Shown in pieces: positions 3,216-46,156 of a stretch of 64,000 nucleotides of DNA (its first letter is position 1; every line of letters starts with the position of its first letter). A program made the position numbers and the translations under genes. The notes below the pieces were generated by a model. The model did no database searches and was not told the DNA's origin. It worked only from the letters and a program-made list of their open reading frames with translations. This DNA is from Actinomycetota bacterium (GTDB taxonomy: Bacteria; Actinomycetota; UBA4738; HRBIN12), in assembly GCA_035490535.1 (NCBI GenBank), contig DATHCP010000003.1, positions 4,467-68,466 of the forward strand, read 5' to 3'.

Positions 3216-3950
3216 TCAGCCCGTCGCGGCGTCGTGGACCTGCCAGGTGGTCGCCTCTGCGCCCTTCACGCTCTCCGTCGTGTCCAGCACGATCCCGACG
3301 CTGCCGTCCTCGCGCCACATGCACGCGGCGGCCGTCGTGTCGTTCCCGGAGACCGGCACGCAGCGGTAGTCGGTTCCGTCGTGGGTCTCCGCGACGTCGC
3401 CCGTCCGGTCCACGGTGGCGCCGCTCTTCTCGATCCCGCCGACGAAGTCGTCGAAGAGCTGATCGGTCGACTCGACCGACCGGCCCGAGACCAGCATCAC
3501 CAGGAAATCGGGCTGCGCGCCGTTCCCGTACGCGCCGGCGACGACGTCCAGGTCATCGCGTGCGCCGATGTCCTTCATGTCCTTCTCGAAGTCCTTCGCG
3601 GACTGCGTCGTGAGGCGCGGGCGGCCCGCCACCGAGTCGGGGAGGTGCGCTCCGCCGGCGAAGAAGACCGCGTGGACCGCGAAGGCGGCCACCGCCGCCA
3701 CGGCGACCCCGATCAGCGCCTTGACGATCGAGGAGCCGCCGCCACGCGAGGTGGTCGGGGGCACCGCGGTGGGCTGGAAGGCGGGCTCGGGCTGCGGCAT
3801 CCGGCCGAAGCCGGGGATCCCGGCCATCCCGGGTCGGCCCGGCGGCGGGGGCGGCGGCACGAACCGCGCGTAGCACTTCCAGCAGAAGTCCGCCTCAGGG
3901 CCGTTCTCGGCACCGCACGACGGACAGGCACGCTTCTCGTCGACCTGCAT
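3216..3950 (-). CDS. Zinc-ribbon, proline-rich membrane-anchored protein (hypothetical)
   Basis: Start moved to the ATG at 3950 (MQVDEKRACPSCGAENGPEADFCWKC), which has a GAGAGGAAGGG RBS. It has an N-terminal CxxC...CxxC zinc ribbon, a PPPPPPGRPG linker, one TM helix (ALIGVAVAAVAAFAV) and an extracytoplasmic C-terminal domain. Confidence 0.55.
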   Translation of the reverse strand: MQVDEKRACPSCGAENGPEADFCWKCYARFVPPPPPPGRPGMAGIPGFGRMPQPEPAFQPTAVPPTTSRGGGSSIVKALIGVAVAAVAAFAVHAVFFAGGAHLPDSVAGRPRLTTQSAKDFEKDMKDIGARDDLDVVAGAYGNGAQPDFLVMLVSGRSVESTDQLFDDFVGGIEKSGATVDRTGDVAETHDGTDYRCVPVSGNDTTAAACMWREDGSVGIVLDTTESVKGAEATTWQVHDAATG

Positions 3951-4008
3951 GGAGCCCTTCCTCTCTGGGGAAGGCATCGGCATCCCTGGGGGGACCCTGA
4001 GCGCCCGA

Positions 4009-5169
4009 TCAGAGCGCCGAGTAGGTGTCGAAGTCGGCCTCGACCTTGGGCACGACCCCGACCACGTACATCCCGTCCAGGCAGCCGGGGCACCAGGACG
4101 AGGCCGCGATCGCGTGGGCGGTGGCGATCGGGTCTGAACAGGCCTTCAGGCTGTCGATGATCGCCCCGTACCCGTAGACGTCCCAGCCGTGCTGGATCGT
4201 CTCCTTCGTAGCCTGCAGACCCTGTTGCAGCGACGTGTAGTTCTGGACGCCGACGCTGTTGAAGTCGGTCGACCCGTCCATCCCGTGCGTCGTCGCCAGC
4301 GGATTCCATGCGGCCTGCGTGAACTCCTGCACCTGCCACGACACGACCAGGACCTGGTTGTTGCGGCACGTCGGCGCCCCGAAGATCCGCAGGAACAGGT
4401 CGGCCCAGTCTCCGTAGGAGACGTGGGCGGAGCCCTGGAACGCCGAGGCCACCGCCGCGACGCTCTGACCCTGCAGCTCCTTCTGGAGCGTCGCGATCAG
4501 GTGGACCAGGCGCGAACGCGTCGCGTCCAACCGGTCCCACGCGGCTAGCTCGGCGGTGAGCGCCTGCGCCCGCTGCTGGCGGGCGGTGGCCAGCTCCCGG
4601 AGCATCGCGCGGCGCGCGGCCATCAGGGCGTCGACGCCGTGCGCGTGCCGCTCGAGCCGCGTCTGGGCGACGAGGAGCTCGGAGGCGATCTGCGACTGCG
4701 CGTCGGCCACGGCGTCCCCGAACGCGAGCCGGTCCTGGAGCTCGCCGATCGAGCCGGCGCCGAGGATCAGGTCGAGCGTCTGCGCACCCGGCACGCCGCC
4801 CGGGTTGTCCATGAACGACTCGACCGCCGCGTCGTGGAGCCGGATCTGGGTGTCCCGGTACGCGACCTGGACGGCCGCGATCCGGTCCTGGATCCGCATC
4901 CGCGCGTGCAGCAGGAGCCCCAGCTCGCGGTCGGCCCGCGCGTAGCGTGCCCCCGCCTCTGCCGCCTGGGCGCGCAGGCCGTCGAGCGTGGCGGCCTCGG
5001 AGCGGATCCGTTCGGTGAGCGCCTGGAGCTGCGCCTTCGCCTGGTCGAGCTGGGAGGACGACGACCCCAACGCGTACGGCGCGAACGCGCCTGCCAGCAG
5101 GAGCGCGAGCACGGCGGCCGTCGTCCGCGTCCGGGCGCGGCGGCGCCCGAAGGACCCATCCCCGGTCAT
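4009..5169 (-). CDS. Secreted coiled-coil protein with C-terminal Cys-containing globular domain (hypothetical)
   Basis: 386 aa. It has a signal peptide (AAVLALLLAGAFAPYALG) and a long Ala/Gln/Arg/Leu-rich coiled-coil region, followed by a C-terminal domain of about 140 aa with several Cys and Trp. No catalytic motif recognised. Confidence 0.55.
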   Translation of the reverse strand: MTGDGSFGRRRARTRTTAAVLALLLAGAFAPYALGSSSSQLDQAKAQLQALTERIRSEAATLDGLRAQAAEAGARYARADRELGLLLHARMRIQDRIAAVQVAYRDTQIRLHDAAVESFMDNPGGVPGAQTLDLILGAGSIGELQDRLAFGDAVADAQSQIASELLVAQTRLERHAHGVDALMAARRAMLRELATARQQRAQALTAELAAWDRLDATRSRLVHLIATLQKELQGQSVAAVASAFQGSAHVSYGDWADLFLRIFGAPTCRNNQVLVVSWQVQEFTQAAWNPLATTHGMDGSTDFNSVGVQNYTSLQQGLQATKETIQHGWDVYGYGAIIDSLKACSDPIATAHAIAASSWCPGCLDGMYVVGVVPKVEADFDTYSAL

Positions 5170-5260
5170 GTCCCCGGATATCGTCGTCGGGCGGGGTCGG
5201 GTTGAATCGTGGTGCGAGGCAAGGCTCCTGGCTCCGGATCCCCGCCCGTAGACTGGGCCG

Positions 5261-6148
5261 GTGCGTCCGCCGTGCCGGATCGGGATCCAGCTCCCCGAGG
5301 TCGAGCGCGCGGTGGGCTGGCCCGAGGTCGCGGCGATCGCGCGAGCGGCCGAGGAGACCGGCTTCGACTCGGTCTGGGTCGGGGATCACCACCTCTACCG
5401 CGACGACGGACGGCCCGAGCGGGGACCGTGGGAGGCGTGGTCGATCCTCGCGGCACTGGCCGCGGTGACCGACCGCGTCCGCCTCGGCCCGCTCGTGGCC
5501 TGCCTGAACTTCGTCGAGCCCGGCGTGCTCGCCCGGGTGGCCTCGACGGTGGACGCGATCGCGGACGGCCGCCTGGTGCTCGCCGTCGGCGCGGGCTGGA
5601 ACCGGGCCGAGTTCGACGCGTTCGGGATCGCGTTCGATCACCGGGCGGCGCGGTTCGAGGAGGCGTTCGAGATCGTGCGGCGGCTCCTGGCGGGTGAGCG
5701 GGTGACGTTCGCGGGCCGGTACCAGCGGGTGAAAGACGCGGTGGTGCTGCCGGCCCCGATGCGCCGCCCCCCACTGGTGATCGGCTCGAACGGACCACGG
5801 ATGCTTGCGGCGGCGCTCCCCCACGTTCAGGCGTGGAACACCTGGTTCGACGACTACGACAACCGGCCGGACGGGTTCGCGGAGCTGCGGGCGCGGATCG
5901 ACGCGGCCTGTGAGACCGCCGGGCGCGATCCGGCGACGCTGGAGCGGAGCGCGTGCCTGTTGGTCCGGGTGGACGAGCGCGCGGCGGCCGAGCGCCCGAC
6001 CGTCGGGTTCGACGCCGTCCGGCTCGGGGATGCAGCGGCGACGATCGGCGCGATGGCCGAGGCGGGCGCCGACGAGGTGATCGTGGTGGCCGATCCGATC
6101 ACCGAGACATCGGTGCGGAGCGTGGCCGCCGCGATCGAGCTGGGCTGA
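5261..6148 (+). CDS. LLM-class (luciferase-like) F420/flavin-dependent oxidoreductase
   Basis: 295 aa with a GTG start. FDSVWVGDHHL and LVLAVGAGW are typical of luciferase-like monooxygenase TIM barrels. Confidence 0.8.
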   Translation: MRPPCRIGIQLPEVERAVGWPEVAAIARAAEETGFDSVWVGDHHLYRDDGRPERGPWEAWSILAALAAVTDRVRLGPLVACLNFVEPGVLARVASTVDAIADGRLVLAVGAGWNRAEFDAFGIAFDHRAARFEEAFEIVRRLLAGERVTFAGRYQRVKDAVVLPAPMRRPPLVIGSNGPRMLAAALPHVQAWNTWFDDYDNRPDGFAELRARIDAACETAGRDPATLERSACLLVRVDERAAAERPTVGFDAVRLGDAAATIGAMAEAGADEVIVVADPITETSVRSVAAAIELG

Positions 6149-6151
6149 GGT

Positions 6152-6736
6152 TCAGCGCGCGAGACCGCGCGTGAACGCCGAGATCGCCAGGCCGAGCCCG
6201 GCGCCGCCGACCAGGTCCAGCGGCAGGTGCGCGCCCACGTACATCCGCCCGTAGCCGGTCGCGCCGACGCCGCCCAGGAGCAGGGGGCGCGCCCAGCCCG
6301 GAACCGAGCGCCACGACGTGACCGCGATCGTCGTCGCGACGGCCGTGTGGCCCGAGACCCACCCCAGATCGCCGGCGATCGGCTCGCGGATCCGGACATC
6401 GGGGAGGAGCTTCTCGGGCCGTGCTCGGCCGCCGAGCGGCTTGGCCTGCTTCGCGAGGAGCCAGGCGGCCGTGCCGCCGAGGCCCACGGCGGCGGCGAGG
6501 TGCCGCCGGCCGGCCAGGAGGGCCACCGCGGCGACCGCCGGCACCGTGCCGAAGGTGCCCATCTGCATCACGGCGCGGACCGGCGCGCGGATCGCGTCCG
6601 GAGCCTCGTTCGCCCACCGGAAGACCCGTTCCTCCTCGGGCGGAACCTCGCCGTCGACGACCAGCCGCCGGCTCCAGGCGAACAGCGCCACGCCCGCCGC
6701 GAACAGTGCGACGTCGGTGGCGCGGCCTCGGAACAT
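6152..6736 (-). CDS. PAP2 family phosphatase (membrane)
   Basis: 194 aa. It carries the three PAP2 motifs: KQAKPLGGRARP (KxxxxxxRP), SGHTA (PSGH) and YVGAHLPLDLVGG (SRxxxxxHxxxD-like). It is a multi-TM protein. Confidence 0.8.
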   Translation of the reverse strand: MFRGRATDVALFAAGVALFAWSRRLVVDGEVPPEEERVFRWANEAPDAIRAPVRAVMQMGTFGTVPAVAAVALLAGRRHLAAAVGLGGTAAWLLAKQAKPLGGRARPEKLLPDVRIREPIAGDLGWVSGHTAVATTIAVTSWRSVPGWARPLLLGGVGATGYGRMYVGAHLPLDLVGGAGLGLAISAFTRGLAR

Positions 6737-6770
6737 GGCGGCGAGGATACGTGCGGCCCCACGGCTCCGG

Positions 6771-6800
6771 TCAGATCCGGTCAGATCCGGTCAGATCCGG
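6771..6800. repeat. Perfect 10-bp tandem triplication (TCAGATCCGG x3) spanning the hutI stop codon
   Basis: Directly visible: ggtcagatccggtcagatccggtcagatccgg. The proximal copy encodes the last codons (DRI*) of the minus-strand hutI, and the other two copies lie just downstream. Confidence 0.7.
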
Positions 6801-7954
6801 TCGCCGCGTCGGATCACGGTGCGGATCAGCGGCGCACCCGGCCGGTACGCGAGGTGGACGTGCGAGGGAGCCTCGAGCACCAGCAGGTCGGCGAACCCGC
6901 CCGGCGTGACGCGCCCCACGTCGGTCCGCCGGAGCGCCGCGGCTCCCCCCGCCGTCGCCGACCAGACCGCCTCGGCCGGCGTCATCCGCATCGCCGTGAC
7001 CGCGAGCGCCACGACGAGCGGCACGTTCGTGGTGAACGACGTGCCGGGGTTGCAGTCGGTCGCGAGCGCGACCCGGACGCCGGCGTCCAGGAGCCCGCGG
7101 GCGTCGGGCCAGGGGTGGCGTGTCGACAGGTCGGCGACGGGAAGGAGGGTCGCGACGACGTCGGCGCCCGCCAGGGCGTCGACGTCGTCGGCGCTCAGGT
7201 ACGTCAGGTGGTCGGCGCTCGCGGCGCCGACCTCCGCGGCCAGGCGGGCGCCGGGGCCGTGCTCGAGCTGGTTCGCGTGCAGGCGCAGGCCCAGGCCGCG
7301 ATCGGCCGCCGCCAGGAGGATCCGCCGCGCCGCGTCCTCGTCGAAGGCGCCGCGGTCGCAGAACACGTCGCACCAGCGGGCGAGGGGCGCGCACGCGTCG
7401 AGCATCTCGCCCACCACGAGGTCCACGTAGGCGGCCGGATCGTCGGCGAGCTCCGGCGCCACGACGTGGGCGCCCAGGAACGTCACCTCGTCGGTGATCG
7501 TGCCCGCGACGCCGAGCAGGCGAGCCTCGTCGTCGACCGTCAGCCCGTAGCCCGACTTCACCTCCACGGTGGTCGTGCCGGTCCGGAGCGCCTCCTCCGC
7601 CAGGCGTCGGGCGTTGGCGCGGAGGTCCTCGTCGCTCGCGGCGCGGGTCGCGGCGACCGTCGTTCGGATCCCGCCGGCCGCGTACGTCTCGCCGCGCATC
7701 CGCGCGTCGAACTCGCCCGCGCGATCGCCGGCGAAGACCAGGTGCGTGTGGGCGTCCACGAAGCCGGGCAGGACCGCCGCGCCGGCGGCGTCGATCCGCG
7801 GGCCCGGAACCCCTTCGGGGGCCGCGTCCGTGGGGCCGATCCACACGACCCGCTCACCCTCGATCGCGACCGCGGCGTTCCGGAGCAGCCCGAGCGGCCC
7901 CTCGCCCAGCTCCGGATCGTTCGTGACGAGCTCGCCGACGCCCGCGACGAGCAC
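6791..7954 (-). CDS. hutI: Imidazolonepropionase
   Basis: 387 aa, amidohydrolase fold. [14 protein letters not shown] is the metal-binding HxH, and further matches are [17 protein letters not shown] and ATDCNPGTS. It lies 4 bp downstream of hutU. Confidence 0.9.
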
Positions 7955-7957
7955 GCC

Positions 7958-9643
7958 TCAGGCCTCGGCCATCGGCACGCGCACGCCGCGCTCGCGCGCG
8001 ACCTCCTCCGCGTGCTCGTACCCCGCGTCGACGTGGCGGAGCACGCCCATCGCCGGGTCGTTCGTCAGCACGCGCTCGGCCTTCTCCCCCGCCTCCTCCG
8101 TGCCGTCGACCACGACGACCTGCCCGGCGTGGATCGAGCGGCCGATCCCCACGCCGCCGCCGTGGTGGATGCTGACCCACGACGCGCCGCTCGCCGTGTT
8201 CACCAAGGCGTTCAGCAGCGGCCAGTCGGCGATCGCATCCGAGCCGTCGGCCATCGCCTCGGTCTCGCGGTACGGGCTCGCGACGCTCCCGCTGTCCAGG
8301 TGATCCCGTCCGATCACGATCGGCGCGGTCAGCTCGCCGCTGGCCACGAGCTCGTTGAACCGGACCCCGGCGACCGCGCGTTCGCCGTAGCCGAGCCAGC
8401 AGATCCGGGCCGGCAGCCCCTGGAACGCCACGCGTTCTCCGGCCATCGCGAGCCAGCGCTGCAGGCGCTCGTCGTCGGGGAACAGCGCAGCCACCGCGCG
8501 ATCGGTCGTCGCGATGTCCTCGGGATCGCCCGAGAGCGCCGCCCAGCGGAACGGGCCCTTGCCCTCGCAGAACATCGGGCGCACGAACGCCGGCACGAAC
8601 CCCGGATACGCGTAGGCCCGGTCGTGCGCGAGCCCGCCCTGCTCGGCGCCCCCGCGCAGGTTGTTGCCGTAGTCGAACGCGATCGCGCCGGCTTCCTGGA
8701 ACGCCACGATCGCATCCACGTGCGCGGCCATCGAGTCGAACGACCGGCGCTCGTAGCCGGCCGCGTCGGCGGCCCGCAGCGCGTCGGCCTCGGCGACCGA
8801 CAGCCCCGACGGCACGTAGCCCCCGAGCGGATCGTGGGCGCTGGTCTGGTCCGTGACGACGTCGGGGCGCCAGCCGCGCCGCACGAGCTCCGGCAGCACG
8901 TCGGCGCAGTTGCCGAGCAGTCCGATCGACACCGCCTCGCGCGCGTCGCGGGCATCCTCGGCCCACCGCAGGGCCTCGTCGAGGTCGGCGGTCTCGCGGT
9001 CGAGGTACCGCGTCTTGATCCGGCGCTCGATCCGCGAGGGATCCACCTCGACGCAGATCGCGACGCCGTCGTTCATCGTCACGGCCAGCGGCTGCGCGCC
9101 GCCCATCCCGCCGAGCCCGCCCGTCAGCGTGATCGTGCCGGCGAGCGTCCCGCCGAAGTGCTGCGAGGCACACTCGGCGAACGTCTCGAAGGTCCCCTGC
9201 AGGATCCCCTGCGTGCCGATGTAGATCCACGAGCCTGCGGTCATCTGCCCGTACATCGTCAGGCCGAGCGCCTCGAGGCGTCGGAACTCGTCCCACGTCG
9301 CCCACTCCGGCACCAGGTTCGAATTCGCGATCAGCACGCGCGGCGCCCATGGGTGGGTGCGCAGCACCCCGACCGGCTTGCCGGACTGGACCAGGAGGGT
9401 CTCATCGTCGCGGAGGCGCCGCAGCTCGCGCACGATCGCGTCGAAGGCCGCCCACGAACGGGCCGCGCGGCCGGTTCCGCCGTAGACCACGAGGTCGTCG
9501 GGACGCTCGGCGACGTCGGGGTCCAGGTTGTTCATCAGCATCCGCATCGCGGCTTCCTGCGGCCAGCCGAGGCAGGTCAGCTCGGAGCCGCGGGGCGCGC
9601 GGACCTCGCGGGCTCCGGCGGTCGTCGACGTCACGCGTCTCAC
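7958..9643 (-). CDS. hutU: Urocanate hydratase
   Basis: 561 aa. [42 protein letters not shown] and the NAD-binding region are characteristic of urocanase. Confidence 0.9.
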
Positions 9644-9677
9644 CTCCCCGGCGACCCGACCGGCCGCCGCGAGCAGC

Positions 9678-10109
9678 CTAGTCCGTGACCAGGTCCACGC
9701 GGACGCGGGTCAGCGAGACGCGGATCGGCTGGCGGTAGTCCTCGGCGAGCCGCGGCCACGCCAGATCCAGGCGGCGGGCCTCGTGGTCGTACTTGCCGAC
9801 GTACGCCGCCACCGCGTCCAGGCGAGGACCCTCGGGGAGTTCGGCGAGGCCCTCGAACGTGACGACATCGTCTCCGCCCTCGTCGGTGCGCAGGGCGATG
9901 GACACGCGCGGGTTCGCACGCAGGTTCCGAACCTTCGGCGCCCCAGGCATGCTCCAGATCCACAGCACCTCGCCCTCGGCCAGGAACCACACCGGCGAAG
10001 GCTGCGGCTGGCCCTCGACCGTCACGGTCGTGAGCCACAGCACGAGCTCCTCGTCGAGGCGCCGGATCGCGTGCGCGTGATGGGGATCCGAACGGTTCAG
10101 GACGGACAC
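9678..10109 (-). CDS. PPOX-class (pyridoxamine 5'-phosphate oxidase-like) F420/FMN-binding protein
   Basis: 143 aa. [19 protein letters not shown] matches the split-barrel PNPOx-like fold family common in actinobacteria. Confidence 0.75.
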
Positions 10110-32351: not shown

Positions 32352-35300
32352 ATGGTCTGCGGGAACTGCGGAACCGACAACGGCGAAGGCCGGAAGTTCT
32401 GCATGGAGTGCGGGGCGCCGTTGGCGCTCGGCTGCCCCGTCTGCGGCAGCCAGAATCCGCCCAGGAGCAAGTTCTGCGGCGAGTGTGGCTCGCCGATCGC
32501 CTCCGCGGAGGACGCGCCGGCGACCGCAGCCGCGGCGCGCCCGGCCGCCGAGCGCCGGCTCGTGACGGTTTTGTTCGCCGACCTCGTCGGCTCCACGCGC
32601 ATGGCCGAGGGCCGCGACCCGGAGGAGGTGCGCGACCTCCTCACCCGGTACTTCGACACCGCCCGCGACGTGATCGAACGCTACGGCGGCCTGGTCGAGA
32701 AGTTCATCGGCGACGCGGTGATGGCGGTCTGGGGCACCCCGACCGCGCACGAGGACGACGCGGAGCGCGCGGTGCGCGCGGCGCTCGAGCTGCTGGACGG
32801 CGTGGAGGCGCTCGGCGAGATGGTCGGCGTGGACCTGCGGGCCCGCGCCGGGGTCCTGACCGGCGAGGCCGCCACGATGATCGGCGCGGTCGACCAGGGG
32901 ATCGTGGCCGGCGACCTGGTCAACACCGCATCCCGCCTGCAGTCCGCGGCCGAGCCCGGCACCGTCCTGGTCGGCGACGCGACGTTCCAAGCGGCCGGGA
33001 AGGCGATCACGTTCGAACGGATCGGCGACCTCGCGCTGAAGGGGAAGGAAGCGCCGGTCCCCGCGTGGCGTGCGCTCCGGATCGTCGGCGAACGCGGCGG
33101 GGTCAACCGGACCGAAGCGATCGAGCCGCCGTTCGTCGGCCGCACGGAGGAGCTCCGGTTGATCAAGGAGCTGTTGCGTGTCACCGGCACGGAGCGGAAG
33201 GCGAGGCTCGTCTCGGTCGTCGGGATCGGCGGGATCGGCAAGTCACGCCTCGCGTGGGAGTTCGAGAAGTACGCCGACGGGCTCGTGGAGGAGCTGTACT
33301 GGCACCGCGGCCGCTGCCCCGCCTATGGCGACGGCGTCACGTTCTGGGCGCTCGGCGAGATGGTGCGCATGCGTGCCCGGATCGCCGAGACCGACGACCC
33401 GGCCGCCGCCTCACGCGCGCTGGCCACCTCGGTGGCCGACCTGATCGCCGATCCCGAGGAGCGCCGCTGGATCGAGCCGCGCCTCGCGCACCTCCTCGGC
33501 CTCGAGCCCGCGCCGCCGGGCGATCGCGCCGAGCTGTTCGCCGCGTGGCGCACGTTCTTCGAGCGCATCGCCGAGCGCGGCACCACGGTGCTGGTCTTCG
33601 AGGATCTCCAGTGGGCCGACGCCGGGATGCTCGACTTCATCGAGTCGATGATCGAGTGGTCCCGGAACCTGCCGATCCTGATCGTGACGCTCGCCCGGCC
33701 CGAGCTGGCCGAACGCCGGCCCACGTGGGGCGCCGGCTCGCGCAGCCTCACCGCCTTGCACCTGGAGCCCTTGCCGGACGCAGCGATGACCCAGCTGGTC
33801 ACCGGCTTCGTCCGCGACCTTCCCGCCGAGAGCGTCGAACGGATCGTCACGCGCGCCGAGGGCGTCCCGATGTACGCGGTCGAGACCGTTCGGATGCTGG
33901 CCGACCGCGGCGTCCTGCACGCGGCCGAGGGAGCGTACGAGCCGGTGGGTGAGGTGGGTGAGCTCGACATCCCGCCCACCCTGCACGCGCTGATCGCCGC
34001 GCGCCTCGACGGGCTGGCGCCGGAGGATCGCGGCCTGCTCCAGGACGCGAGCGTGCTCGGGAAGAGCTTCACGCTCGACGGGCTCGCCGCGATCGCGGGG
34101 CTCGCGGCTCCGGAGCTGGAGCCGAGGCTCCGGGAGCTGACGCGGAAGGAGTTCCTGGAGTTGGACGCCGACCCACGCTCGCCCGAGCGTGGGATGTACA
34201 CGTTCACCCAGTCGATGATCCGCGAGGTCGCCTACGCGACGCTCGCGCGCGCCGACCGGCGCGCCCGCCACCTCGCCGCGGCCCATCACCTCGAGTCCCT
34301 CGGGGACGAGGAGCTGGCGGCGGTGGTCGCGACGCACTACGTCGAGGCCTACCGGGAATCGCCGGCGGGGCCGGAGGCCGACGCTCTGGCCGCCCGCGCC
34401 CGCGACTGGCTCTCGCAGGCCGCCGAACGTGCGACGTCCCTGGGCTCGCCCGAGCAGGCCCTCGCGTACGCGGAGATCGCGCTCGACGTCACTCCGGCGG
34501 GCACCGAGCGGGCAGCGATCCTCGAGGTCGCCGGCCGCGCGGCGGTGCACGCGGCCGAGTTCCCTCGCGCCGTTGCGTTCCTCGAGGAGGCGATCGCCAT
34601 CCTCGGCGGGATCGGGGACCTCGAGTCGGTCGCGCGTGTGACGGCCCGCCTGTGGCGCGCGCTCGCACCCCAGAACCGCCGGATCGAAGGCGCCGAGCGG
34701 ATGGAGGCCGCGCTGGCCGACCTCGGGGATGAGGGCCACGAGGAGGTCCGCGCCAAGGTCTACGCGTCGCTTGCCAGCGCGTACGTGATCACCGACGCCG
34801 CCGAGGTCGCGATCGGATGGGCGGAGCGCGCCCTGGAACTCGCCGAGCGGAACCACCTCACCGAGACGTTGGTCGAGGCGCTCGGCGCGAAGTCGCTCGG
34901 GCTGTTCAACCTGGGCCGGCATCGCGAGGCGACGATCCTGGCGCGCGGGACGCTGCAACTCGCAGAGGAGATCGGGAGCATCCGGATCGCGGGCGAGGCG
35001 TTCATGGGGATCGCGGTCTACGGCTCCGAGGACGACCCGATCGGCTCGCTCCACGCCTTCGAGGAAGCGGCCGACATGGCGCGGCGTGCCGGTGACCGTC
35101 CGCTCGAACTGGTGACGCTTCCGAACCTCGCCGAGTCCGCGATCGAGCTCGGGCACTGGCCCGAGGCGGAGGACGCGATCGCGCGCCTCGACGGCAGGGA
35201 GCTCACCCCGATGACCAGGGACAGCGTCGTGTGTTGCGAGGCGTCGCTGCTCGCGCATCGCGGCGAACCGGATCGGGCGCTCACGCGCCTGGAGAGCGTG

Positions 35301-35843
35301 CGGGTCGAGGTCGAGGCGACCGAGATGGTGCCGCTCCGCGCGTGGTTCTTGCGCGTGCGCTCGGCCGTGCTGCTCCTGCACGGCGATCTGGACGCGGCGT
35401 ACGACGAGGCGATGGGCGCCGTGGCGCTCGATCCTGCCGGGATGAATACGCCGCTCGCAACGCGAGAGGCGTCCCGTGCCGCCGTGTGGGCGCGCGACGC
35501 CGAGCGCGTGCGCCGGGCGATCGCCGCGGTGGGCGTGCTGGGCGGCCGTTGGATCGACGCGGTGCGCCTGACGGCGACCGCCGGCCTCGCCGCGATCGAG
35601 GGGCGGCGGATCGACGCGGTGGCCGGCTACGGACGCGCGATCGACGCGTGGCGCGACCTGAACTGTTCGTTCGACCTGGCCTGCTGCGCGATCGACATGG
35701 CGGCGGTGCTCCCCGGAGAGCCGCTGACGGAGGAGACGCTCGCGGACGCGACCGCCTACCTTCGCGATATCGGCGCCGTCGCGCTCTTGGAGCGGCTGGC
35801 GGCGTTCACCCGCGAGGGCGAGGCCGCATCGACGACGGCCTGA
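32352..35843 (+). CDS. Double-zinc-ribbon / class III adenylate-guanylate cyclase / AAA-ATPase / TPR-like multidomain (STAND-type) protein
   Basis: 1163 aa. The N-terminal region is CGNCG...CMECG...CPVCG...CGECG (double Zn ribbon). The cyclase domain shows VLFADLVGST, FIGDAVMAVWG and LVNTASRLQ, so the metal Asp residues and the Asn/Arg are present. The P-loop is VVGIGGIGKSRL, and a long helical-repeat C-terminus follows. There is no HTH. Confidence 0.85.
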   Translation: MVCGNCGTDNGEGRKFCMECGAPLALGCPVCGSQNPPRSKFCGECGSPIASAEDAPATAAAARPAAERRLVTVLFADLVGSTRMAEGRDPEEVRDLLTRYFDTARDVIERYGGLVEKFIGDAVMAVWGTPTAHEDDAERAVRAALELLDGVEALGEMVGVDLRARAGVLTGEAATMIGAVDQGIVAGDLVNTASRLQSAAEPGTVLVGDATFQAAGKAITFERIGDLALKGKEAPVPAWRALRIVGERGGVNRTEAIEPPFVGRTEELRLIKELLRVTGTERKARLVSVVGIGGIGKSRLAWEFEKYADGLVEELYWHRGRCPAYGDGVTFWALGEMVRMRARIAETDDPAAASRALATSVADLIADPEERRWIEPRLAHLLGLEPAPPGDRAELFAAWRTFFERIAERGTTVLVFEDLQWADAGMLDFIESMIEWSRNLPILIVTLARPELAERRPTWGAGSRSLTALHLEPLPDAAMTQLVTGFVRDLPAESVERIVTRAEGVPMYAVETVRMLADRGVLHAAEGAYEPVGEVGELDIPPTLHALIAARLDGLAPEDRGLLQDASVLGKSFTLDGLAAIAGLAAPELEPRLRELTRKEFLELDADPRSPERGMYTFTQSMIREVAYATLARADRRARHLAAAHHLESLGDEELAAVVATHYVEAYRESPAGPEADALAARARDWLSQAAERATSLGSPEQALAYAEIALDVTPAGTERAAILEVAGRAAVHAAEFPRAVAFLEEAIAILGGIGDLESVARVTARLWRALAPQNRRIEGAERMEAALADLGDEGHEEVRAKVYASLASAYVITDAAEVAIGWAERALELAERNHLTETLVEALGAKSLGLFNLGRHREATILARGTLQLAEEIGSIRIAGEAFMGIAVYGSEDDPIGSLHAFEEAADMARRAGDRPLELVTLPNLAESAIELGHWPEAEDAIARLDGRELTPMTRDSVVCCEASLLAHRGEPDRALTRLESVRVEVEATEMVPLRAWFLRVRSAVLLLHGDLDAAYDEAMGAVALDPAGMNTPLATREASRAAVWARDAERVRRAIAAVGVLGGRWIDAVRLTATAGLAAIEGRRIDAVAGYGRAIDAWRDLNCSFDLACCAIDMAAVLPGEPLTEETLADATAYLRDIGAVALLERLAAFTREGEAASTTA

Positions 35844-35846
35844 GCG

Positions 35847-36467
35847 TCAGAACGTGATGCTCCTCGCGATCACCGTGTCGACCTGGTCCGGCTGGTCCGT
35901 GAACGACACGGACATCCGGCAGTCGAAGACCTTGTTCACGCCGCGGATCAGGTTCCACAGCTCGAACGTGATCGCCTGCCTCGCGTGCGCGGCCAGGCGC
36001 ACGTTCCACGCCCAGGTCGCGTACGGCTCCTTGGTGATCACGTTGTAGTGGTGCCACTCCGACACCTTCCAGGTGCCGATCAGCACCTCACGGATCCGCC
36101 ACCGGTTCCGCATGTTCAGCGGCACCCCGCAGCCCTGCACATGCAAGGTCTGGTCCTGGTCGCTGTCGTTCTGCAGCATCACCCAGAAGCGGATGTCGGT
36201 CCCTTCATCCATCAAGCCCGTCGCGGTCTGATGGGAGCCACTCGTGTTGTAGACGTTGTTGCCCTTGTACGGCGTCGGGAGGTACGGCTTCTTGTTGAAG
36301 GCGCAGCCGTGGTCGAAGCCGCACAGGCGCACCCACGCGTCCGCCCGTGCCTGCACCGGAGGCAGGGCGGCGGCACGCGCCGCCGAGCGCGCCCCCGCCG
36401 CGGGCGAGAACGCCGCGATCGAGGTCACCACCATCAGGAACACCACCAGCGGGAGGGAACGCTTCAT
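35847..36467 (-). CDS. Secreted Cys-containing hypothetical protein in a low-GC (about 58%) gene
   Basis: 206 aa. It has a signal peptide (MKRSLPLVVFLMVVTSIAAFSPAAGA), five Cys residues and many Trp/Asn/Gln residues. The base composition is clearly AT-richer than the flanking DNA. No known domain recognised. Confidence 0.5.
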   Translation of the reverse strand: MKRSLPLVVFLMVVTSIAAFSPAAGARSAARAAALPPVQARADAWVRLCGFDHGCAFNKKPYLPTPYKGNNVYNTSGSHQTATGLMDEGTDIRFWVMLQNDSDQDQTLHVQGCGVPLNMRNRWRIREVLIGTWKVSEWHHYNVITKEPYATWAWNVRLAAHARQAITFELWNLIRGVNKVFDCRMSVSFTDQPDQVDTVIARSITF

Positions 36468-37972: not shown

Positions 37973-38064
37973 AGGCAGGACCCCCTGCCTGCCGATGTCA
38001 CGTTCGTATGGTGAGATCGCCGCGTCCCTCGCACCCTTCCACGAGCCGGTGGTACAAGGGGTTC

Positions 38065-39132
38065 GTGGGATCACGCTTGCGGATCTCGGTCCTCAGCGTC
38101 GTCGTGGCCGTGGCGCTCGTGCTCGGCCTGATCGGCGTCACGCGCGGCCGCGCGGACGCGACGCCTGCGCTCCAGCCCGTGGGAGCGCAGGAGTTGCTCG
38201 CCTCGGCGATCAACGCGTCCGCGCGGCCGTTCACGATCTCCGGCTCGGTGACCAGCACGGTCGACGTGGGACTGCCGTCCCTCCCGGCCGGGCTCGGCGG
38301 CGGCGCCACCGGCCCTGCCGCGATGCTGCTCGGCACCCAGGACTACCGCGTGTGGCGCTCGCCCGACGGCGTCCGCCTGGCGCATCTGACCGACCTGGGC
38401 GAGCAGGTCGCGGTGGCCAACGCGACCGACGCCTGGTTCTGGGATTCGAACGCCATGCGCGCCGTGCACCTGGCGGCGCCCACGGCGTCCTCCGGCGGCG
38501 ACCACCCCGCCTGGTTCGCGCCGATCCTCGGCGGCACCGGCGCGACCGGCGCGCCGAAGCTCGATCCCTCCACGCTCGCGAGCGTCGCGTTGCTGGGTCT
38601 GGCGCCGTACGCGGACGTCTCCGTGGGCACCACCGCCGTCGTCGCCGGCCGCCCCGTCTACGACCTGATCCTCACGCCGACCGCACCGGACACGCTGATC
38701 GGCCGGATCACGGTGTCGATCGACGCCGCGAACCGACTGCCCCTCCAGCTCGCGATCACCCCGAAGGGTGCCGACGCCCCGGCGGTACGGATCGGGTTCA
38801 CGTCGGTTTCGTTCGATCCGATCGACCCGTCGATGTTCGACTTCGTGCCGCCGCCCGGCGCGACGGTCGTGGAGCCTTCGCCGTCGAGCCACGCCGGACG
38901 GACGGAAGGACACCTGGACGGCCATCCGCAGACGGTCGTGTTCGGCTCAGGGTTCGGCACGCGGATCGCCGTCAAGCTCACGCGGCCGCTCCCGGCCGAG
39001 GCCGGCGCCCTGCTTCCGTTCGGTGGTCCGCTGTTCTCCGTGATGACCACCCGCGCCGGGGGCGCGACGTGGCTCCTGGCGGGACCGGTCGGGCTGGACA
39101 CGCTGCGCGAGGACGCCACGAAGCTCCCGTGA
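38065..39132 (+). CDS. Secreted LolA/RseB-like (DUF-type) protein preceding an ABC ATPase
   Basis: GTG start at 38065 after AAGGGG, giving the signal peptide GSRLRISVLSVVVAVALVLGLIGVTRGRADA. An alternative ATG exists at 38008. The protein is about 350 aa, beta-rich and Ala/Thr/Gly-rich. The domain assignment is tentative. Its stop overlaps the ATPase start (GTGA). Confidence 0.5.
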   Translation: MGSRLRISVLSVVVAVALVLGLIGVTRGRADATPALQPVGAQELLASAINASARPFTISGSVTSTVDVGLPSLPAGLGGGATGPAAMLLGTQDYRVWRSPDGVRLAHLTDLGEQVAVANATDAWFWDSNAMRAVHLAAPTASSGGDHPAWFAPILGGTGATGAPKLDPSTLASVALLGLAPYADVSVGTTAVVAGRPVYDLILTPTAPDTLIGRITVSIDAANRLPLQLAITPKGADAPAVRIGFTSVSFDPIDPSMFDFVPPPGATVVEPSPSSHAGRTEGHLDGHPQTVVFGSGFGTRIAVKLTRPLPAEAGALLPFGGPLFSVMTTRAGGATWLLAGPVGLDTLREDATKLP

Positions 39133-40076
39133 CCGCCGCGATCGTCGCGCGCGGCCTCTCGAAGCGCTACGGCGAACTCGCCGCGGTCGACCACCTGGAC
39201 CTCACGGTCGAGCCCGGGCAGCTCTTCGGCTTCCTGGGCCCCAACGGCGCCGGCAAGACCACCACGATCCGGATGGCGCTCGGGCTGATCCTGCCGACCG
39301 AGGGCGAGGTCGACCTGCTGGGCGAGCGGGTCGGGCCGGCGCATGCCCCGCTCGAACGCGTGGGCGCGCTCGTCGAAGAGCCCGCCTTCTGGAAGTACCT
39401 GAGCGGCCGGAAGAACCTGGAGTACTTCGCGCGAGCGGGCGCGGGCACCGATCGCGCCGGTTCGCGCGCGCGTCTGGAGCGCGTCGATCACGTGCTCGCG
39501 ACGGTCGGGCTGCTCGAGGCGGCCGACAAGAGGGTGAAGGCCTACAGCCAGGGGATGCGGCAGCGCCTCGGGATCGCCCTGGCCCTGCTCGGCGAGCCCG
39601 AGCTGCTGGTCCTGGACGAGCCCACGAACGGCCTCGATCCGAGCGGGATGCGCGAGATCCGGCTGCTGCTGCGCGCGCTTGCCGACCAGGGCACGACGAT
39701 CTTCGTCTCGAGCCACCTGCTGGCCGAGGTCGAGGCGATGTGCGACCGCGTCGGCGTGATGGCGCACGGCCGCCTGGTGGCCGAGGGCTCACCGGGCTCG
39801 CTGGGCGGCGGCGCCGACCGGGTGCGCATCGAGGTCGACGACGCCGCGGCGGCCCTTCGCGTCGGCGCCGGTCTGAACGGTGTGCAGCTGGAGGGGATCG
39901 GCGCGGGTCCCGGTTCCGGCACGATCACCGCGACGTTCGCCGACGGAATCGGCCCGGCCGACCTGAACGCGGCGTTCGTCCGGGCCGGGATCCGCGTCCA
40001 CGCGTTGATCCCCGTGCGCGAGAGCCTCGAGGACGTGTTCCTGCACCTCGTGGAGGGCGAAGATGTACCGCGTTGA
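39129..40076 (+). CDS. ABC transporter ATP-binding protein (ABC-2/exporter type)
   Basis: Walker A is GPNGAGKTT, the signature is YSQGMRQRL and Walker B is LLVLDEPTNGLD. Confidence 0.85.
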   Translation: MTAAIVARGLSKRYGELAAVDHLDLTVEPGQLFGFLGPNGAGKTTTIRMALGLILPTEGEVDLLGERVGPAHAPLERVGALVEEPAFWKYLSGRKNLEYFARAGAGTDRAGSRARLERVDHVLATVGLLEAADKRVKAYSQGMRQRLGIALALLGEPELLVLDEPTNGLDPSGMREIRLLLRALADQGTTIFVSSHLLAEVEAMCDRVGVMAHGRLVAEGSPGSLGGGADRVRIEVDDAAAALRVGAGLNGVQLEGIGAGPGSGTITATFADGIGPADLNAAFVRAGIRVHALIPVRESLEDVFLHLVEGEDVPR

Positions 40077-40869
40077 GCTCGCGAAGGCGCTCCATCGCTG
40101 GCGCACCTGGCTGCTCGCCGCGGCGATCGCCGGGATCCCGTTCGTGATCGTGCTGGCGATCAAGGCGAACCCCCCCACGCCGCAAGACTCACAGGACGCG
40201 CCACCGTTCCTGCTCCAGGTCTCGACCAGCGGGATGTACGCGGCGCTGACCGGCCTCGCCGTGGTCCAGCCCTTCTTCCTGCCGCTCGCGACCGGGTTGT
40301 TCGCCGGCGACGCGATCGCCGGCGAGTCCCAGGCCGGGACGCTGCGGTACCTCCTCCTCCGTCCGGTCCGACGCACGCGGCTGGTCGTGGCGAAGTACAC
40401 GTCGGCGATGACGCTCCTCGGCTTCCTCGTCGTGGCCACGATCGCGAGTGGCCTGATCTGGGGCGCGATCGTGTTCGGGCTGCATCCGATGCCGACGCTC
40501 TCGGGCACGACGCTGTCGGTGCTCGAGGGGCTCGGGCGGATCGCCGCTTCCGGTGCCTACATGGTCCTGGCGATGTCGGGCATCGCGTGCATCGGCGTGT
40601 GCATCTCCACCCGCACCGACTCCGGCCCGGGCGCCGCGGTCGCCACGATCGTGATCGCGATCGCCAGTCAGATCATGGGGCAGATCCCGAGCCTGCACGC
40701 GGTCCACCCGTACCTGCCCACGAACGGCTGGCTCGCGTTCATCGGCTTCTTCCGCTTCCCGGTCGACTGGAGCGGGATGCGCGAAGGCCTGCTGGTCAGC
40801 GCGGCGTACTCCACGGTCTTCCTGAGCCTCGCGATCTCGGGGTTCCGTCGCCGCGATGTCACGTCCTAG
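40063..40869 (+). CDS. ABC-2 family transporter permease
   Basis: 268 aa with six predicted TM helices. Its start overlaps the ATPase stop by 14 nt. Confidence 0.7.
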   Translation: MYRVELAKALHRWRTWLLAAAIAGIPFVIVLAIKANPPTPQDSQDAPPFLLQVSTSGMYAALTGLAVVQPFFLPLATGLFAGDAIAGESQAGTLRYLLLRPVRRTRLVVAKYTSAMTLLGFLVVATIASGLIWGAIVFGLHPMPTLSGTTLSVLEGLGRIAASGAYMVLAMSGIACIGVCISTRTDSGPGAAVATIVIAIASQIMGQIPSLHAVHPYLPTNGWLAFIGFFRFPVDWSGMREGLLVSAAYSTVFLSLAISGFRRRDVTS

Positions 40870-40930
40870 CCGGGAGCGCTGCATCGCAGCTCGGCTTGTA
40901 CGGTTGCGCCCGGAGGCATAGCCTCCGGTC

Positions 40931-41500
40931 ATGGTCGCGACCGTCGAGCAGCGAACCATCGCCGGCTCGCACCGCCGGCGAGGGAGGGTGCTGCTCGCGG
41001 TCGCGGCCATCGTGCTCGCCGCCGCGTTCGTCGGCGCCGAGATCTTCCTGACCACGACGTATCAACCGTTGAACGCGCCGGCCGGCGGTCATACCGACAC
41101 GACCTATCGACAGGGAGCGCCGTTCTCGTACGCGTTCACCGTGTGGAACACCGGGCGCGTTCCGGTGACGATCACCGGCGTCGACCAGGGACCAACCCGG
41201 TTCTTCAGCCTGTACCGCGTCGACCAGATGCTGGTCTCTCCCCCGAACTCCTTCGGGTCGATCACGGGACCGGCCCCCGACTTCACACCGTTCCAGGGGT
41301 TCACGCTGCAACCCGGCGAGGCTCGAAGCATCCTGATCCGGGCCACCTTCCACGGATGCCGCCACTACGCGCACGACACCGCGATCACGGTCGAACAGCA
41401 ACGCCTGACCTTCCGGACGTTCGGCGCCTCGCGCACGGTGTGGTTCCCGATCCCTCATTTCACGATCCGTTCGCCGAACGTCTGTCCGGGAAGAGCATGA
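40931..41500 (+). CDS. Membrane-anchored hypothetical protein, paralog A (N-terminal TM helix plus beta-rich extracytoplasmic domain ending CPGR)
   Basis: 189 aa with one TM helix (LLAVAAIVLAAAFVGAEIF). It shares conserved blocks with the next gene: VTITGxDxGP, FTLQPGEARSILI, ATFxxC and a C-terminal PxxCPGR. Confidence 0.55.
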   Translation: MVATVEQRTIAGSHRRRGRVLLAVAAIVLAAAFVGAEIFLTTTYQPLNAPAGGHTDTTYRQGAPFSYAFTVWNTGRVPVTITGVDQGPTRFFSLYRVDQMLVSPPNSFGSITGPAPDFTPFQGFTLQPGEARSILIRATFHGCRHYAHDTAITVEQQRLTFRTFGASRTVWFPIPHFTIRSPNVCPGRA

Positions 41501-42075
41501 ACGGCGATGCGGTGATGGGAGCGGCGGGACCGCGTCCCGGATGGCGCCGCCGCGCGGCGATCGGCGCCCTGTTGATCTTCGGACTGCCGACGCTCCTCAT
41601 CGGAGGACTGATCCTCGGTGTGCACGGACTCTCCCGGTACCAACCGCTCACCACCGGCTCGCTCGGAGTGGGACGCCCGCGGTACCGCGAGGGCGAGCGG
41701 TTCGACTTCGCCTACACGCTGCAGAACACGGGGCGATGGAGCGTGACGATCACCGGCCTCGACCTGCCGAGCCCCAGCTTGCTGCGCACCACCGGGATCT
41801 TCGTCTCGAAACCGGGCGCGAGCCTGAACGACGCCGGCGATACCTCGCCGAGGTTCTACGAGCCGTTCCAGAAGTTCACGCTCGCTCCCCACGAAGTGCG
41901 CGGGATCCTGATCCACAACACCTTCGCCAACTGCAACCTCTTCCACTCGAAGGATGTCGCCGCGGTGGGCTCGGTGGCGGAGTCGGTCGACTTCCAGGTG
42001 TTCGGGTACCACGGTCACCAGTGGGTGCCCGTGCGGTTCGCGATCCCGATGCCGAAGGAGTGTCCTGGCCGCTGA
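41497..42075 (+). CDS. Membrane-anchored hypothetical protein, paralog B
   Basis: Start at the ATG at 41497, overlapping the paralog A stop (ATGA). It has one TM helix (AIGALLIFGLPTLLIGGLILGV) and the same conserved blocks: SVTITGLDLPSP, FTLAPHEVRGILI, NTFANC and PKECPGR. Confidence 0.55.
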   Translation: MNGDAVMGAAGPRPGWRRRAAIGALLIFGLPTLLIGGLILGVHGLSRYQPLTTGSLGVGRPRYREGERFDFAYTLQNTGRWSVTITGLDLPSPSLLRTTGIFVSKPGASLNDAGDTSPRFYEPFQKFTLAPHEVRGILIHNTFANCNLFHSKDVAAVGSVAESVDFQVFGYHGHQWVPVRFAIPMPKECPGR

Positions 42076-42127
42076 CCGGGAGGTGACGAGGCGCCCTCCC
42101 GGAGGAGGGCGCCTCGCCGGTGGAGCC

Positions 42128-44549: not shown

Positions 44550-45101
44550 TCAGCGGTGGATCGGCTTGTCCGTGCGGACCGGGCCGTTGAACGGAACCCC
44601 GAACCCCACACCCTCCAGCACGTAGTGCACGGTGGCGCCCCCGTCGGCGGTCACGGACACGTTGAAGCCCGAGGCAACGTAGATCGACCCGTTCAGCGCC
44701 GCCTCCAGGTGACCGGTCGCCGAGCCGCCGTCGACCGTGCCCTGCCAGATGATCGAGCCGGCTCCGAGCGTGATCCCCTTGCGGACCGTAAGCGTGGCGG
44801 CCACACCGTTCGTCACCGGCACGTCGAGGCTGATCCCCGACAGCTCGCCCTTCCCGCTCTTCGTGCCGCTCCCGGTGGCGCTCAGGATCACGGTGTTGCC
44901 CGCATCCTGCGTATACACGAGCGAGCCGCTCGCGTCGGTCCAGAGGCTGCCCGCGGTCACGCGCGCCTTCTGCGCGGTCTTCGGATCCTTCACCGTGACG
45001 AGGTTCGACGCCGCTTGCGCGAGCGGTGGCCCGACCAGGTACCCGACGATCGCCGCCGCCAGCACCAGCCCCGACACGCGGACCCACTTCCCTGCCTGCA
45101 T
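44550..45101 (-). CDS. Secreted Gly/Ser/Thr-rich hypothetical protein
   Basis: 183 aa with a GAGAGAGGGG RBS. It has a signal peptide (LVLAAAIVGYLVGPPLAQAAS), a beta-rich low-complexity composition and no Cys. Confidence 0.5.
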   Translation of the reverse strand: MQAGKWVRVSGLVLAAAIVGYLVGPPLAQAASNLVTVKDPKTAQKARVTAGSLWTDASGSLVYTQDAGNTVILSATGSGTKSGKGELSGISLDVPVTNGVAATLTVRKGITLGAGSIIWQGTVDGGSATGHLEAALNGSIYVASGFNVSVTADGGATVHYVLEGVGFGVPFNGPVRTDKPIHR

Positions 45102-45190: not shown

Positions 45191-46156
45191 CTACTCGAGG
45201 CCGTAGAGGCGGCGGGCCGCCGGCGTCATCCGTGCGAGCTCGGACGCCGGGATCGCCGGGGGTCGGTGCTCGGGCTCCGCGTCTCCACGCCGGAAGAACT
45301 TGCGCCGCCCGACCATCGCGGGGGGCTCCGGCTTCGGGGGTCGGGGGACCGACGGGTGCCGAAGTCCCTCGGTGACCTCGGCCGCGGGATGCGCCTCCGG
45401 AACCGTTGGACCTCGCCGCAGCCCGTCACCAACCCCATCACGTCGTTGACGTTCCTGAACTGCATCCCTCAGAACGTCGGGCTTTCGAACTTCTCGAACT
45501 TCTCGAACTTCTCGAACTTCGTGTTGCTGAACTTCCTGAACTTCCTGTGTTCCAACTTCGCGTACCTGGGGGGTTGGAGGTTGCTTCGCAACTTCCTCCG
45601 ACACCAACCTCCTCTCGACCTTCGCGAGCGCGCCCAGCAAGCGCGTCCGCAGGTCGGACGTCCGTCGGTCAGCTTCCTTGACCATCTCGTCCGTCGAGGC
45701 GTCGGCGCGGGAACGTCGGCCCACATCCGACAGATCGATGTCCAGCCGGAAGGGGTACCGGGCGGCCGGCGCCGGAGCGTCCCGCCACGCGGGACCGGGC
45801 GCATCCGCCAGCGGATCCTCCCGGTAGCGGCCGACGAATTCCAGCTTGCCGGGCTCCGCACCGATCACGCGGTCCTCGACCGAGGCGTCCACCAAGCCGG
45901 TCAGCAGCATCGGGCGGCGGATCCTGGGACCGGTACGGCCCTGGGAGCGCTCGGCCGCCTCGGCGCGGAGCTGCCGCTGCTCCTCATCGTCCCGCCGCCG
46001 GAACTCGGCCGCGAAACGCTCTGCGCCCCAACGAGAAGCCCGCATCCGGGCGTAGGTGAGGAGGGCAGCTTCGATGCCGTCGTCGTCCTCGGGCACGTCG
46101 GTGTCGTCGCCCCACGTGCGGAGGTCTTCCAGCCAGAACGCCCCCTCTGCCGCCAT
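45191..46156 (-). CDS. Hypothetical protein containing an in-frame EVR/QEV tandem-repeat segment
   Basis: Start tentatively at the ATG at 46156 (MAAEGAFWLEDL), so that it does not overlap the upstream cyclase gene. It has an acidic N-terminus, and its C-terminal part contains QEVQEVQQHEVREVREVREVR, encoded by the 9-bp repeats. No domain recognised. Confidence 0.4.
   Translation of the reverse strand: MAAEGAFWLEDLRTWGDDTDVPEDDDGIEAALLTYARMRASRWGAERFAAEFRRRDDEEQRQLRAEAAERSQGRTGPRIRRPMLLTGLVDASVEDRVIGAEPGKLEFVGRYREDPLADAPGPAWRDAPAPAARYPFRLDIDLSDVGRRSRADASTDEMVKEADRRTSDLRTRLLGALAKVERRLVSEEVAKQPPTPQVREVGTQEVQEVQQHEVREVREVREVRKPDVLRDAVQERQRRDGVGDGLRRGPTVPEAHPAAEVTEGLRHPSVPRPPKPEPPAMVGRRKFFRRGDAEPEHRPPAIPASELARMTPAARRLYGLE
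45486..45545. repeat. 9-bp tandem repeat (CGAACTTCT x3 plus one variant copy, then TGAACTTCC x2) in a local low-GC (about 45-58%) patch
   Basis: Directly visible: cgaacttctcgaacttctcgaacttctcgaacttcg...tgaacttcctgaacttcc. The repeat is in frame on the minus strand (EVR/QEV units). Local GC is far below the roughly 70% window average. Confidence 0.8.

Follow-up and report, generated by a model that had tools for sequence, protein, structure and literature searches.

A conserved predicted ABC-2 exporter operon with a putative LolA/RseB-fold partner, and a probably accessory, variable array of predicted membrane-anchored Ig-like proteins, in an uncultured member of the Actinomycetota

Results

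We analysed a block of five genes (g1 to g5) lying in the same direction on the + strand at 38065-42075 of a 64,000-nucleotide stretch of DNA, called here the window, which has about 70% GC and matches exactly a contig in the metagenome-assembled genome (MAG) of an uncultured member of the Actinomycetota. We think it probable that the block consists of two layers: a conserved ATP-binding cassette (ABC) exporter of the ABC-2 type with a LolA/RseB-fold partner (g1, g2 and g3, which we call the triad), then an accessory, variable array of membrane-anchored proteins with an immunoglobulin (Ig)-like fold (g4 and g5). The array is either cleanly absent or present in 2 or 3 copies beside an exporter operon that is itself intact, and g4 and g5 are not obligatory or dedicated subunits of that exporter.

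All five open reading frames (ORFs) were found where a preliminary description of this DNA, made from its letters alone, had placed them. They are g1 (38065-39132, GTG start, 355 residues), g2 (39129-40076, GTG start, 315 residues), g3 (40063-40869, 268 residues), g4 or paralog A (40931-41500, 189 residues) and g5 or paralog B (41497-42075, 192 residues). The junctions too are as they had been described: a GTGA overlap of 4 nt at 39129, an overlap of 14 nt at 40063 and an ATGA overlap of 4 nt at 41497. The sole intergenic gap within the block is the + strand spacer of 61 nt between g3 and g4 (40870-40930), which marks the boundary between the triad and the array. The NCBI calls VK646_00655, VK646_00670 and VK646_00675 have the same lengths as our g1, g4 and g5. 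An alternative in-frame ATG for g1 is present at 38008, 57 nt before the GTG (38065) at which NCBI starts the gene; a start at this ATG (38008-38064) would place 19 more residues (MVRSPRPSHPSTSRWYKGF) ahead of the hydrophobic segment of g1. Many long spurious ORFs are found in all frames of this GC-rich window.

Presence and absence of the array

We sampled 17 loci anchored on the permease (L008-L024), all from species-representative genomes which are Actinomycetota MAGs, with the exception of one labelled Blastocatellia, and we added two loci found by means of g1 (L001 and L002) and one locus of Nonomuraea (L036). Across the 17 permease-anchored loci the identity of the permease to g3 ranges from 60 to 86%. 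When the region downstream of the permease was searched with a hidden Markov model (HMM) of the g4/g5 family, paralogs were detected in only one of the 16 informative species-level relatives (L008). The metagenome contigs L004-L006, which belong to the same lineage as L008, carry them as well, in three tandem copies.

The comparison of L008 with L009 is the most telling one. These two loci are collinear, with 95% DNA identity outside the array, and their permeases are 98.5% identical; L008 nevertheless has three paralogs and L009 none. The paralogs of L008 occupy about 1.8 kb (5823-7641), in place of which L009 has some 155 nt (5823-5977). Beyond this point both loci enter the same convergent YCII-like gene, the stop of which comes after the array in L008 and inside which the L008 sequence ends; in L009 and in the window this gene is followed by DinB_2 and phosphoesterase genes. 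The triad proteins of L008 are 93-98% identical to those of L009 and of L001, which has no paralogs either, and those of both sides are only 73-88% identical to the proteins of the window. The short spacer of L009 is unrelated in sequence to the array, and it has a hairpin of its own (GAAGGGCTGGG...CCCAGCCCTTC).

The spacer between g3 and g4 is homologous in the window and in L008, the alignment extending to position 5900 of L008. Orthology between the arrays is loose: the best pair of paralogs between the window and L004, formed by g5 and the second of the three copies found in L004 and L008, reaches 54% identity, as compared to 86% for the adjoining permease, which means that the paralogs evolve much faster than the triad. 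The polymorphism of 0, 2 or 3 copies offers a natural experiment on any link between the family and the exporter. The preliminary description had regarded g4 and g5 as two dedicated membrane-anchored partners of the exporter, and this did not survive the comparison, in view of the single relative out of 16 with paralogs, of the absence of the array from L009 and of the five informative contexts described below, none of which has an ABC-2 neighbour.

Conservation of the triad

The order of the three genes and their overlaps of 4 and 14 nt are kept in every informative locus, that is in L001, in L002, in 15 of the 17 permease-anchored loci (L017, which is cut upstream, and L024, which is without a strong g2 match, were left out of this count) and in L036. 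The latter locus comes from Nonomuraea gerenzanensis (NZ_LT559118.1, a replicon of 11.85 Mb in a plasmid collection), matched by tblastn of g1. There, within 3581-9771 of the locus, consecutive genes encode a DUF2092 protein which passes the Pfam threshold, an ABC ATPase and an ABC-2 permease; the overlap between ATPase and permease is again 14 nt, and no paralog of the g4/g5 family is present at the triad. As the triad is found in Nonomuraea too, we regard it as a widespread actinobacterial unit. It spans uncultured Actinomycetota and a cultured host, though one which is not routinely engineered.

The genes around the triad differ between loci. Those shared beyond the three genes (of the ddl, pckA and thiL type) were considered as conserved partners and set aside as ordinary chromosomal synteny. 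We searched the literature for experimental work on a triad made of a LolA/RseB-fold protein and an ABC-2 transporter and found none. The locus as a whole is uncharacterised but fairly ordinary. In Nonomuraea the triad is divergent from a pair of genes for an OmpR-type response regulator and a histidine kinase, and convergent with a DUF1775 gene (YcnI-like, copper-associated), which, along with the similarity to NosFY reported below, constitutes a weak lead towards copper.

The predicted exporter and its presumed partner

The first gene encodes, as judged from its sequence and its structural model, a secreted or N-terminally anchored protein with the two-domain fold of RseB, MucB and LolA, which would place it in the DUF2092/LolA-like superfamily. 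After its N-terminal hydrophobic segment the protein reads RADA|T, and no lipobox cysteine was found in the translation. As a single sequence g1 stays below the Pfam and NCBIfam cut-offs, including those of DUF2092 and LolA. It has more than 100 homologs, which carry in their sources names such as "LolA family" or "outer membrane lipoprotein-sorting protein". A profile of 46 of these homologs matches E. coli LolA (PDB 2zpc) with an E-value of 8.9e-5; MucB_RseB (PF03888) is recognised in 14 of the 46 and DUF2092 (PF09865) in 8, and PF17131 is matched as well. Searching with the AlphaFold2 model of g1 (predicted local distance difference test, pLDDT, 83.6), Foldseek gave as its best matches full-length RseB (3m4w/2p4b) and MucB, with an E-value of 3e-11 over about 340 columns, LolA ranking after them with 7e-10 for the N-terminal domain. 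The likeness to LolA and RseB noticed from the letters is thus borne out by the family profile, by the Pfam matches of the homologs and by the fold search. A link between DUF2092 and LolA, with conservation of a hydrophobic cavity, has been described (PMC4520260).

The products of g2 and g3, which had been described as an ABC ATPase and an ABC-2 permease, both pass the Pfam thresholds for these families. That of g2 matches ABC_tran (PF00005) above the gathering threshold (1.8e-28, 100 bits), and the Walker A (GPNGAGKTT), signature (YSQGM), Walker B (LLVLDEP) and H-loop (SSH) motifs can be read in its translation. Against the drrA model TIGR01188 it scores 209.7 bits (5.6e-62), below the cut-off of 312, and against the lantibiotic-protection model TIGR03740 197.3 bits, below the cut-off of 309.8; these curated cut-offs leave it outside the DrrAB and LanFEG families. 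Its nearest solved structures are the nucleotide-binding domains of ABCA lipid exporters and NosF (7o0y, E 6.6e-51). By its sequence g2 is an ATPase of a DrrA/NosF/ABCA-like kind, with a predicted C-terminal domain of regulatory type. The product of g3 matches ABC2_membrane_2 (PF12679, 2.5e-15, 56.9 bits) and ABC2_membrane_4 (PF12730, 4.4e-14), both above gathering. It has about six transmembrane (TM) helices and almost no external loops, those present being short, and its sole solved relative is NosY (7o0y, E 1.7e-4, about 80 residues covered). An ATPase with all its motifs, adjacent to a permease of six TM helices through a conserved overlap of 14 nt, is what is expected of an ABC-2 (type V) exporter. 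A role in anti-phage defence was considered and discarded, PADLOC having returned only generic cross-matches to ABC ATPases.

The paralog family

That g4 and g5 are paralogs, as had been proposed, is far beyond chance: BLASTP aligns them over 151 residues with 40% identity (E 2e-25), and direct repeats between the two genes are spaced by 575-578 nt in the DNA. Of the blocks said to be shared, FTLxPxExRxILI, F..C and PxxCPGR are present in both proteins, and TITGxDxP is exact in g5 only: g4 reads TITGVDQGP, and its C-terminus is CPGRA rather than CPGR. The single N-terminal TM helix (residues 15-43) and the beta-rich domain of the preliminary description were both recovered in an AlphaFold2 model with a pLDDT of 91.7, and fold searches with it point to a beta-sandwich of the Ig-like/E-set type. 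On these models g4 and g5 are predicted type II membrane-anchored proteins with an Ig-like beta-sandwich. Sub-threshold sequence matches of the sandwich are to a DUF4352 chain (8q30, E 0.06) and to DUF1573 and DUF7507 (E 0.1-0.2).

Word-indexed homology searches with g4 and g5 returned essentially the proteins themselves. An exhaustive profile search gave 559 cluster representatives with E<=1e-3, 123 of which with E<=1e-10; g5 scores 166 bits against the family HMM. The members, mostly of 170-230 residues, have an Arg-rich cytoplasmic tail, one TM helix, a motif of the "YQPL" type and then the sandwich, with an "N-x-G...VT-I/V-T-G" strand, a "PF.PF.L.PGE.R" motif and two conserved cysteines (C143 and C185 in g4). 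The full domain is matched by 122 of 126 small members, and 101 of these 122 have exactly two cysteines in their C-terminal part. Positions P46, N73, G75 and C143 are invariant in the family and C185 nearly so; the ectodomain is probably stapled by a disulfide. Proteins with multiple repeats align to the family only over a stretch of about 25 residues around "NxG..VT".

Neither Pfam nor NCBIfam has a model for the family (45 members scanned); with some 560 representatives and a confident fold, it qualifies as a candidate for curation as a new family. For g4, a match to the "midcut-by-XrtH" model (E 8e-5; 22.8 bits, the cut-off being 45) was rejected, as it concerns mainly the TM region and recurs in only 2 of these 45 members. 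Matches of a copper type appeared among the fold or sequence hits (PCuAC/ECuC and the cupredoxin domains of PmoB/AmoB). We did not retain a copper chaperone for all that: the family is without conserved His or Met and has only its two Cys, and the fold matches are generic, which leaves a weak lead only. In a close subfamily the Arg cluster and the TM helix are preceded by a shared peptide at the cytoplasmic N-terminus, "MSAPTIERPPAPP", which g4 has as MVATVEQRTIAG (window 40931-40990; L004 1463-1520 and 2047-2100; N-termini of P0108, P0110 and P0002); it is confined to near relatives, being found in 4 of the 122 wider members. No g4/g5 homolog was found in the plasmid collection, and all recovered loci have 65-73% GC.

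Seven further members out of the approximately 560 were sampled in their genomic surroundings, each of them single copy and together representing six contexts, one of which (P0118, on the 1.3-kb contig L025) is uninformative; a narrower family alignment (A4) had retrieved only two short metagenome contigs. P0122 lies beside Rex and hemA (L028, L029), P0132 between a glyoxalase gene and Liv-type permeases (L030, L031), a P0110-like member directly after dps (L034), P0124 and P0130 beside moaA and MoCF genes (L026, L032, L033), and P0119 directly after a PadR gene (L027). None of the five informative contexts has an ABC-2 or a LolA-like neighbour. We looked for a conserved neighbourhood joining the family to ABC-2 transporters and did not find it; what was largely found is the distribution without ABC neighbours which, according to the preliminary description itself, would speak against dedicated partners.

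Two of these contexts call for a comment. P0119 (297 residues; L027 4655-5894) is a fusion in which an N-terminal HAAS domain (PF22564) precedes the TM helix and the sandwich, and its gene overlaps the upstream PadR gene. The HAAS-PadR pair has been proposed to be a membrane signalling dyad in which the fused domains are sensors (PMC11237479). This suggests that the sandwich is a ligand- or protein-binding ectodomain and that the Ig-like ectodomain of P0119 could be the extracellular sensor of its PadR-HAAS pair. P0124 and P0130 (L026 810-2644; L032 1364-3781) are not close relatives of each other, and both are divergent from moaA (radical SAM/Mob_synth_C), a MoCF_biosynth/XdhC gene coming after in L032. 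The adjacency to moaA may be a conserved linkage with the molybdenum cofactor or mere synteny.

Transcription signals

A consensus scan listed neither a sigma-70-like promoter nor a canonical terminator across the region, including the spacer of 61 nt. Between g5 and the convergent YCII-like gene lies a GC-rich hairpin of 13 bp (42087-42116, assigned to neither strand) with a minimum free energy of -39.8 kcal/mol (z -3.1), which is matched by 1 of 200 shuffles; the scan did not list it because it has no T-run. This hairpin is the probable end of the transcription unit, and with these signals it seems plausible that the five genes are transcribed together here. A second hairpin, within the spacer (40910-40928), was examined as a terminator or riboregulator and rejected, having a z of -0.9 and not being conserved in L004.

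Discussion

In the reading which we favour, the triad would form a translationally coupled ABC-2 (type V, NosFY/ABCA-like) exporter, presumably (g2)2(g3)2, with g1 as its extracytoplasmic partner. Movements of the permease driven by ATP would pass a hydrophobic or amphipathic molecule of the envelope (a lipid, a glycolipid or a lipopeptide) between the membrane and the cavity of g1. This hand-off would be conceptually like that of LolCDE and LolA, carried out by another class of transporter. We infer such a transfer from the cavity fold of g1, from the tight translational coupling and from the fact that g3 lacks external loops. The second layer would be a copy-number-variable tandem array from an uncurated Actinomycetota family; g4 and g5 probably ride on read-through transcription from the exporter and may be binding modules exposed at the surface. 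Current understanding is left unchanged by these results. Bacteria which are generally regarded as monoderm have no outer membrane to which lipoproteins could be sorted, and this makes the cargo of the triad a point of interest in envelope biology.

Several known systems offer points of comparison. In diderms, LolCDE is an ABC transporter which releases lipoproteins to LolA, a soluble acceptor of their hydrophobic moiety. In g1 it is the N-terminal domain that aligns with LolA, at about 1e-9, with 7arm and 6f3z among the fold matches of g1 in the PDB; however, the permease g3 is of the small ABC-2 kind, while LolCE is of type VII (FtsX/MacB-type) and has large periplasmic domains, g1 carries an additional domain resembling RseB, no LolB is present in the 64 kb analysed and the host is an Actinomycetota MAG. 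No FtsX-type gene was found in the flanks of the block in the window. RseB and MucB are periplasmic partners of the anti-sigma factors RseA and MucA. They are the best full-length structural match of g1, over its two domains, and 14 of the 46 homologs are recognised as MucB_RseB, but the identity is only 11-17% and g1 is translationally coupled to an ABC ATPase. Neither a sigma-E gene nor an RseA/MucA-like gene was found near the block in the window or in the flanks of the relatives.

NosDFY, with NosL, is an ABC-2 system of copper delivery which works through an extracytoplasmic partner encoded in its operon and not as a simple pump. Its structure (7o0y) is the nearest solved relative shared by g2 (NosF) and g3 (NosY), but its partners are the beta-helix protein NosD and NosL, a lipoprotein, encoded in nos clusters together with nosZ, and no NosD, NosL or nosZ was found in the flanks of the block. 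In mycobacteria, LprG (with Rv1410c/P55) and LppX are LolA-like proteins with a hydrophobic cavity, placed beside transporters, which move envelope lipids and thereby give an actinobacterial precedent; LppX and LprAFG are, however, lipoproteins of another protein family, g1 having no lipobox cysteine, and their transporters are of the major facilitator superfamily or of the resistance-nodulation-division type. Finally, LanFEG exporters, of the ABC-2 type, are accompanied by LanI, small membrane-anchored immunity proteins. The likeness lies in an exporter with membrane-anchored extracellular binding proteins and in the score of g2 against the lantibiotic-protection model (197 bits, below its cut-off). 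Here, however, there is one permease gene instead of two and there are no lantibiotic genes, and fold searches with the g4/g5 family gave no similarity to LanI or SpaI. By analogy with LanI and LanFEG, g4 and g5 might be interchangeable specificity or immunity modules of the exporter, which would capture particular extracellular hydrophobic ligands (antimicrobial lipopeptides or foreign lipids, for example) and either pass them on to the pump or sense them, their copy number and sequence being tuned by conflict; we hold this to be very improbable.

The block could also be explained otherwise. If g1 were a regulator or sensor like RseB or GerS, the exporter a detoxification or antimicrobial-peptide resistance pump of the DrrAB/LanFEG type and the paralogs unrelated genes with a promoter of their own, one would understand why RseB and MucB are the best structural match of both domains of g1, why the drrA and lantibiotic-protection models are the top scores of the ATPase, though below their cut-offs, and why in Nonomuraea an OmpR-type two-component system is encoded divergently from the triad, as is typical of stress and resistance modules; LolA folds can, moreover, act as allosteric regulators. 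Yet those scores are far under the curated cut-offs, no sigma or anti-sigma gene adjoins the triad in any locus examined, and no two-component system lies beside it in the window or in the MAG loci. The tight coupling of g1 to the ATPase also speaks for a partner in fixed stoichiometry and against a free regulator, and we consider this explanation unlikely. A distinctly unlikely explanation, in our opinion, is that the five genes are one machine, at least in this lineage, in which g4 and g5 would be dedicated subunits and could present the substrate or couple the permease to the LolA-like protein. The common strand, the gap of only 61 nt, the lack of a terminator before g5 and the strong hairpin after it are all in keeping with this, as is the adjacency, kept with a homologous spacer in the window and in L004-L006 and L008, and a permease without external domains makes additional extracytoplasmic partners plausible. 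What decides against it is that the triad stands alone in 15 of 16 informative relatives and in Nonomuraea, and that L009, with a permease almost identical to that of L008, is cleanly without the array; the copy number of 0, 2 or 3, the loose orthology between arrays and the sampled family members elsewhere, which have no ABC-2 neighbours, point the same way. The idea that g4 and g5 are annotation artefacts of high-GC DNA, or functionless decaying duplicates, could draw on the abundance of spurious long ORFs in the window and on word-based searches almost devoid of homologs. It is already refuted by the 559 profile relatives (123 of them at E<=1e-10), by the conserved architecture and cysteines, by the pLDDT of 91.7 and by intact copies in several independent metagenomes.

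A few observations weigh against the reading as an exporter with its partner followed by an accessory array. RseB is itself a regulator. LolA-fold proteins of monoderms can be non-carriers, as shown by GerS, which activates the amidase CwlD (bioRxiv 10.1101/2025.01.13.632879). The array is found beside the permease in two lineages which are about 80% identical in DNA, and an adjacency kept across a divergence of about 20% exceeds chance, so that there could be a functional link specific to these lineages. L009 may have members of the family elsewhere in its genome, and the sample of other genomic contexts is small with respect to the size of the family.

Surroundings of the block

In the window the block is flanked by genes for a cyclase/AAA_16 regulator and for GNAT, PfkB, YCII, DinB_2 and phosphoesterase proteins. 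In the regulator (32352-35843, +; 1163 residues) a double zinc ribbon is combined with adenylate/guanylate cyclase, AAA_16 and TPR domains. L001 shows synteny with this gene, and there the next gene is for a Crp-type regulator binding cyclic nucleoside monophosphates. Two predicted secreted proteins with signal-like N-termini and without a Pfam family flank the region, one on each side (35847-36467, -, 206 residues; 44550-45101, -, 183 residues). Between the gene of the 183-residue protein and the next ORFs, at 45485-45547, we noticed a 9-nt tandem repeat, TCGAACTTC, present in four perfect copies with an imperfect extension to about seven, which, according to the frame, encodes (EVR)n or (NFS)n.

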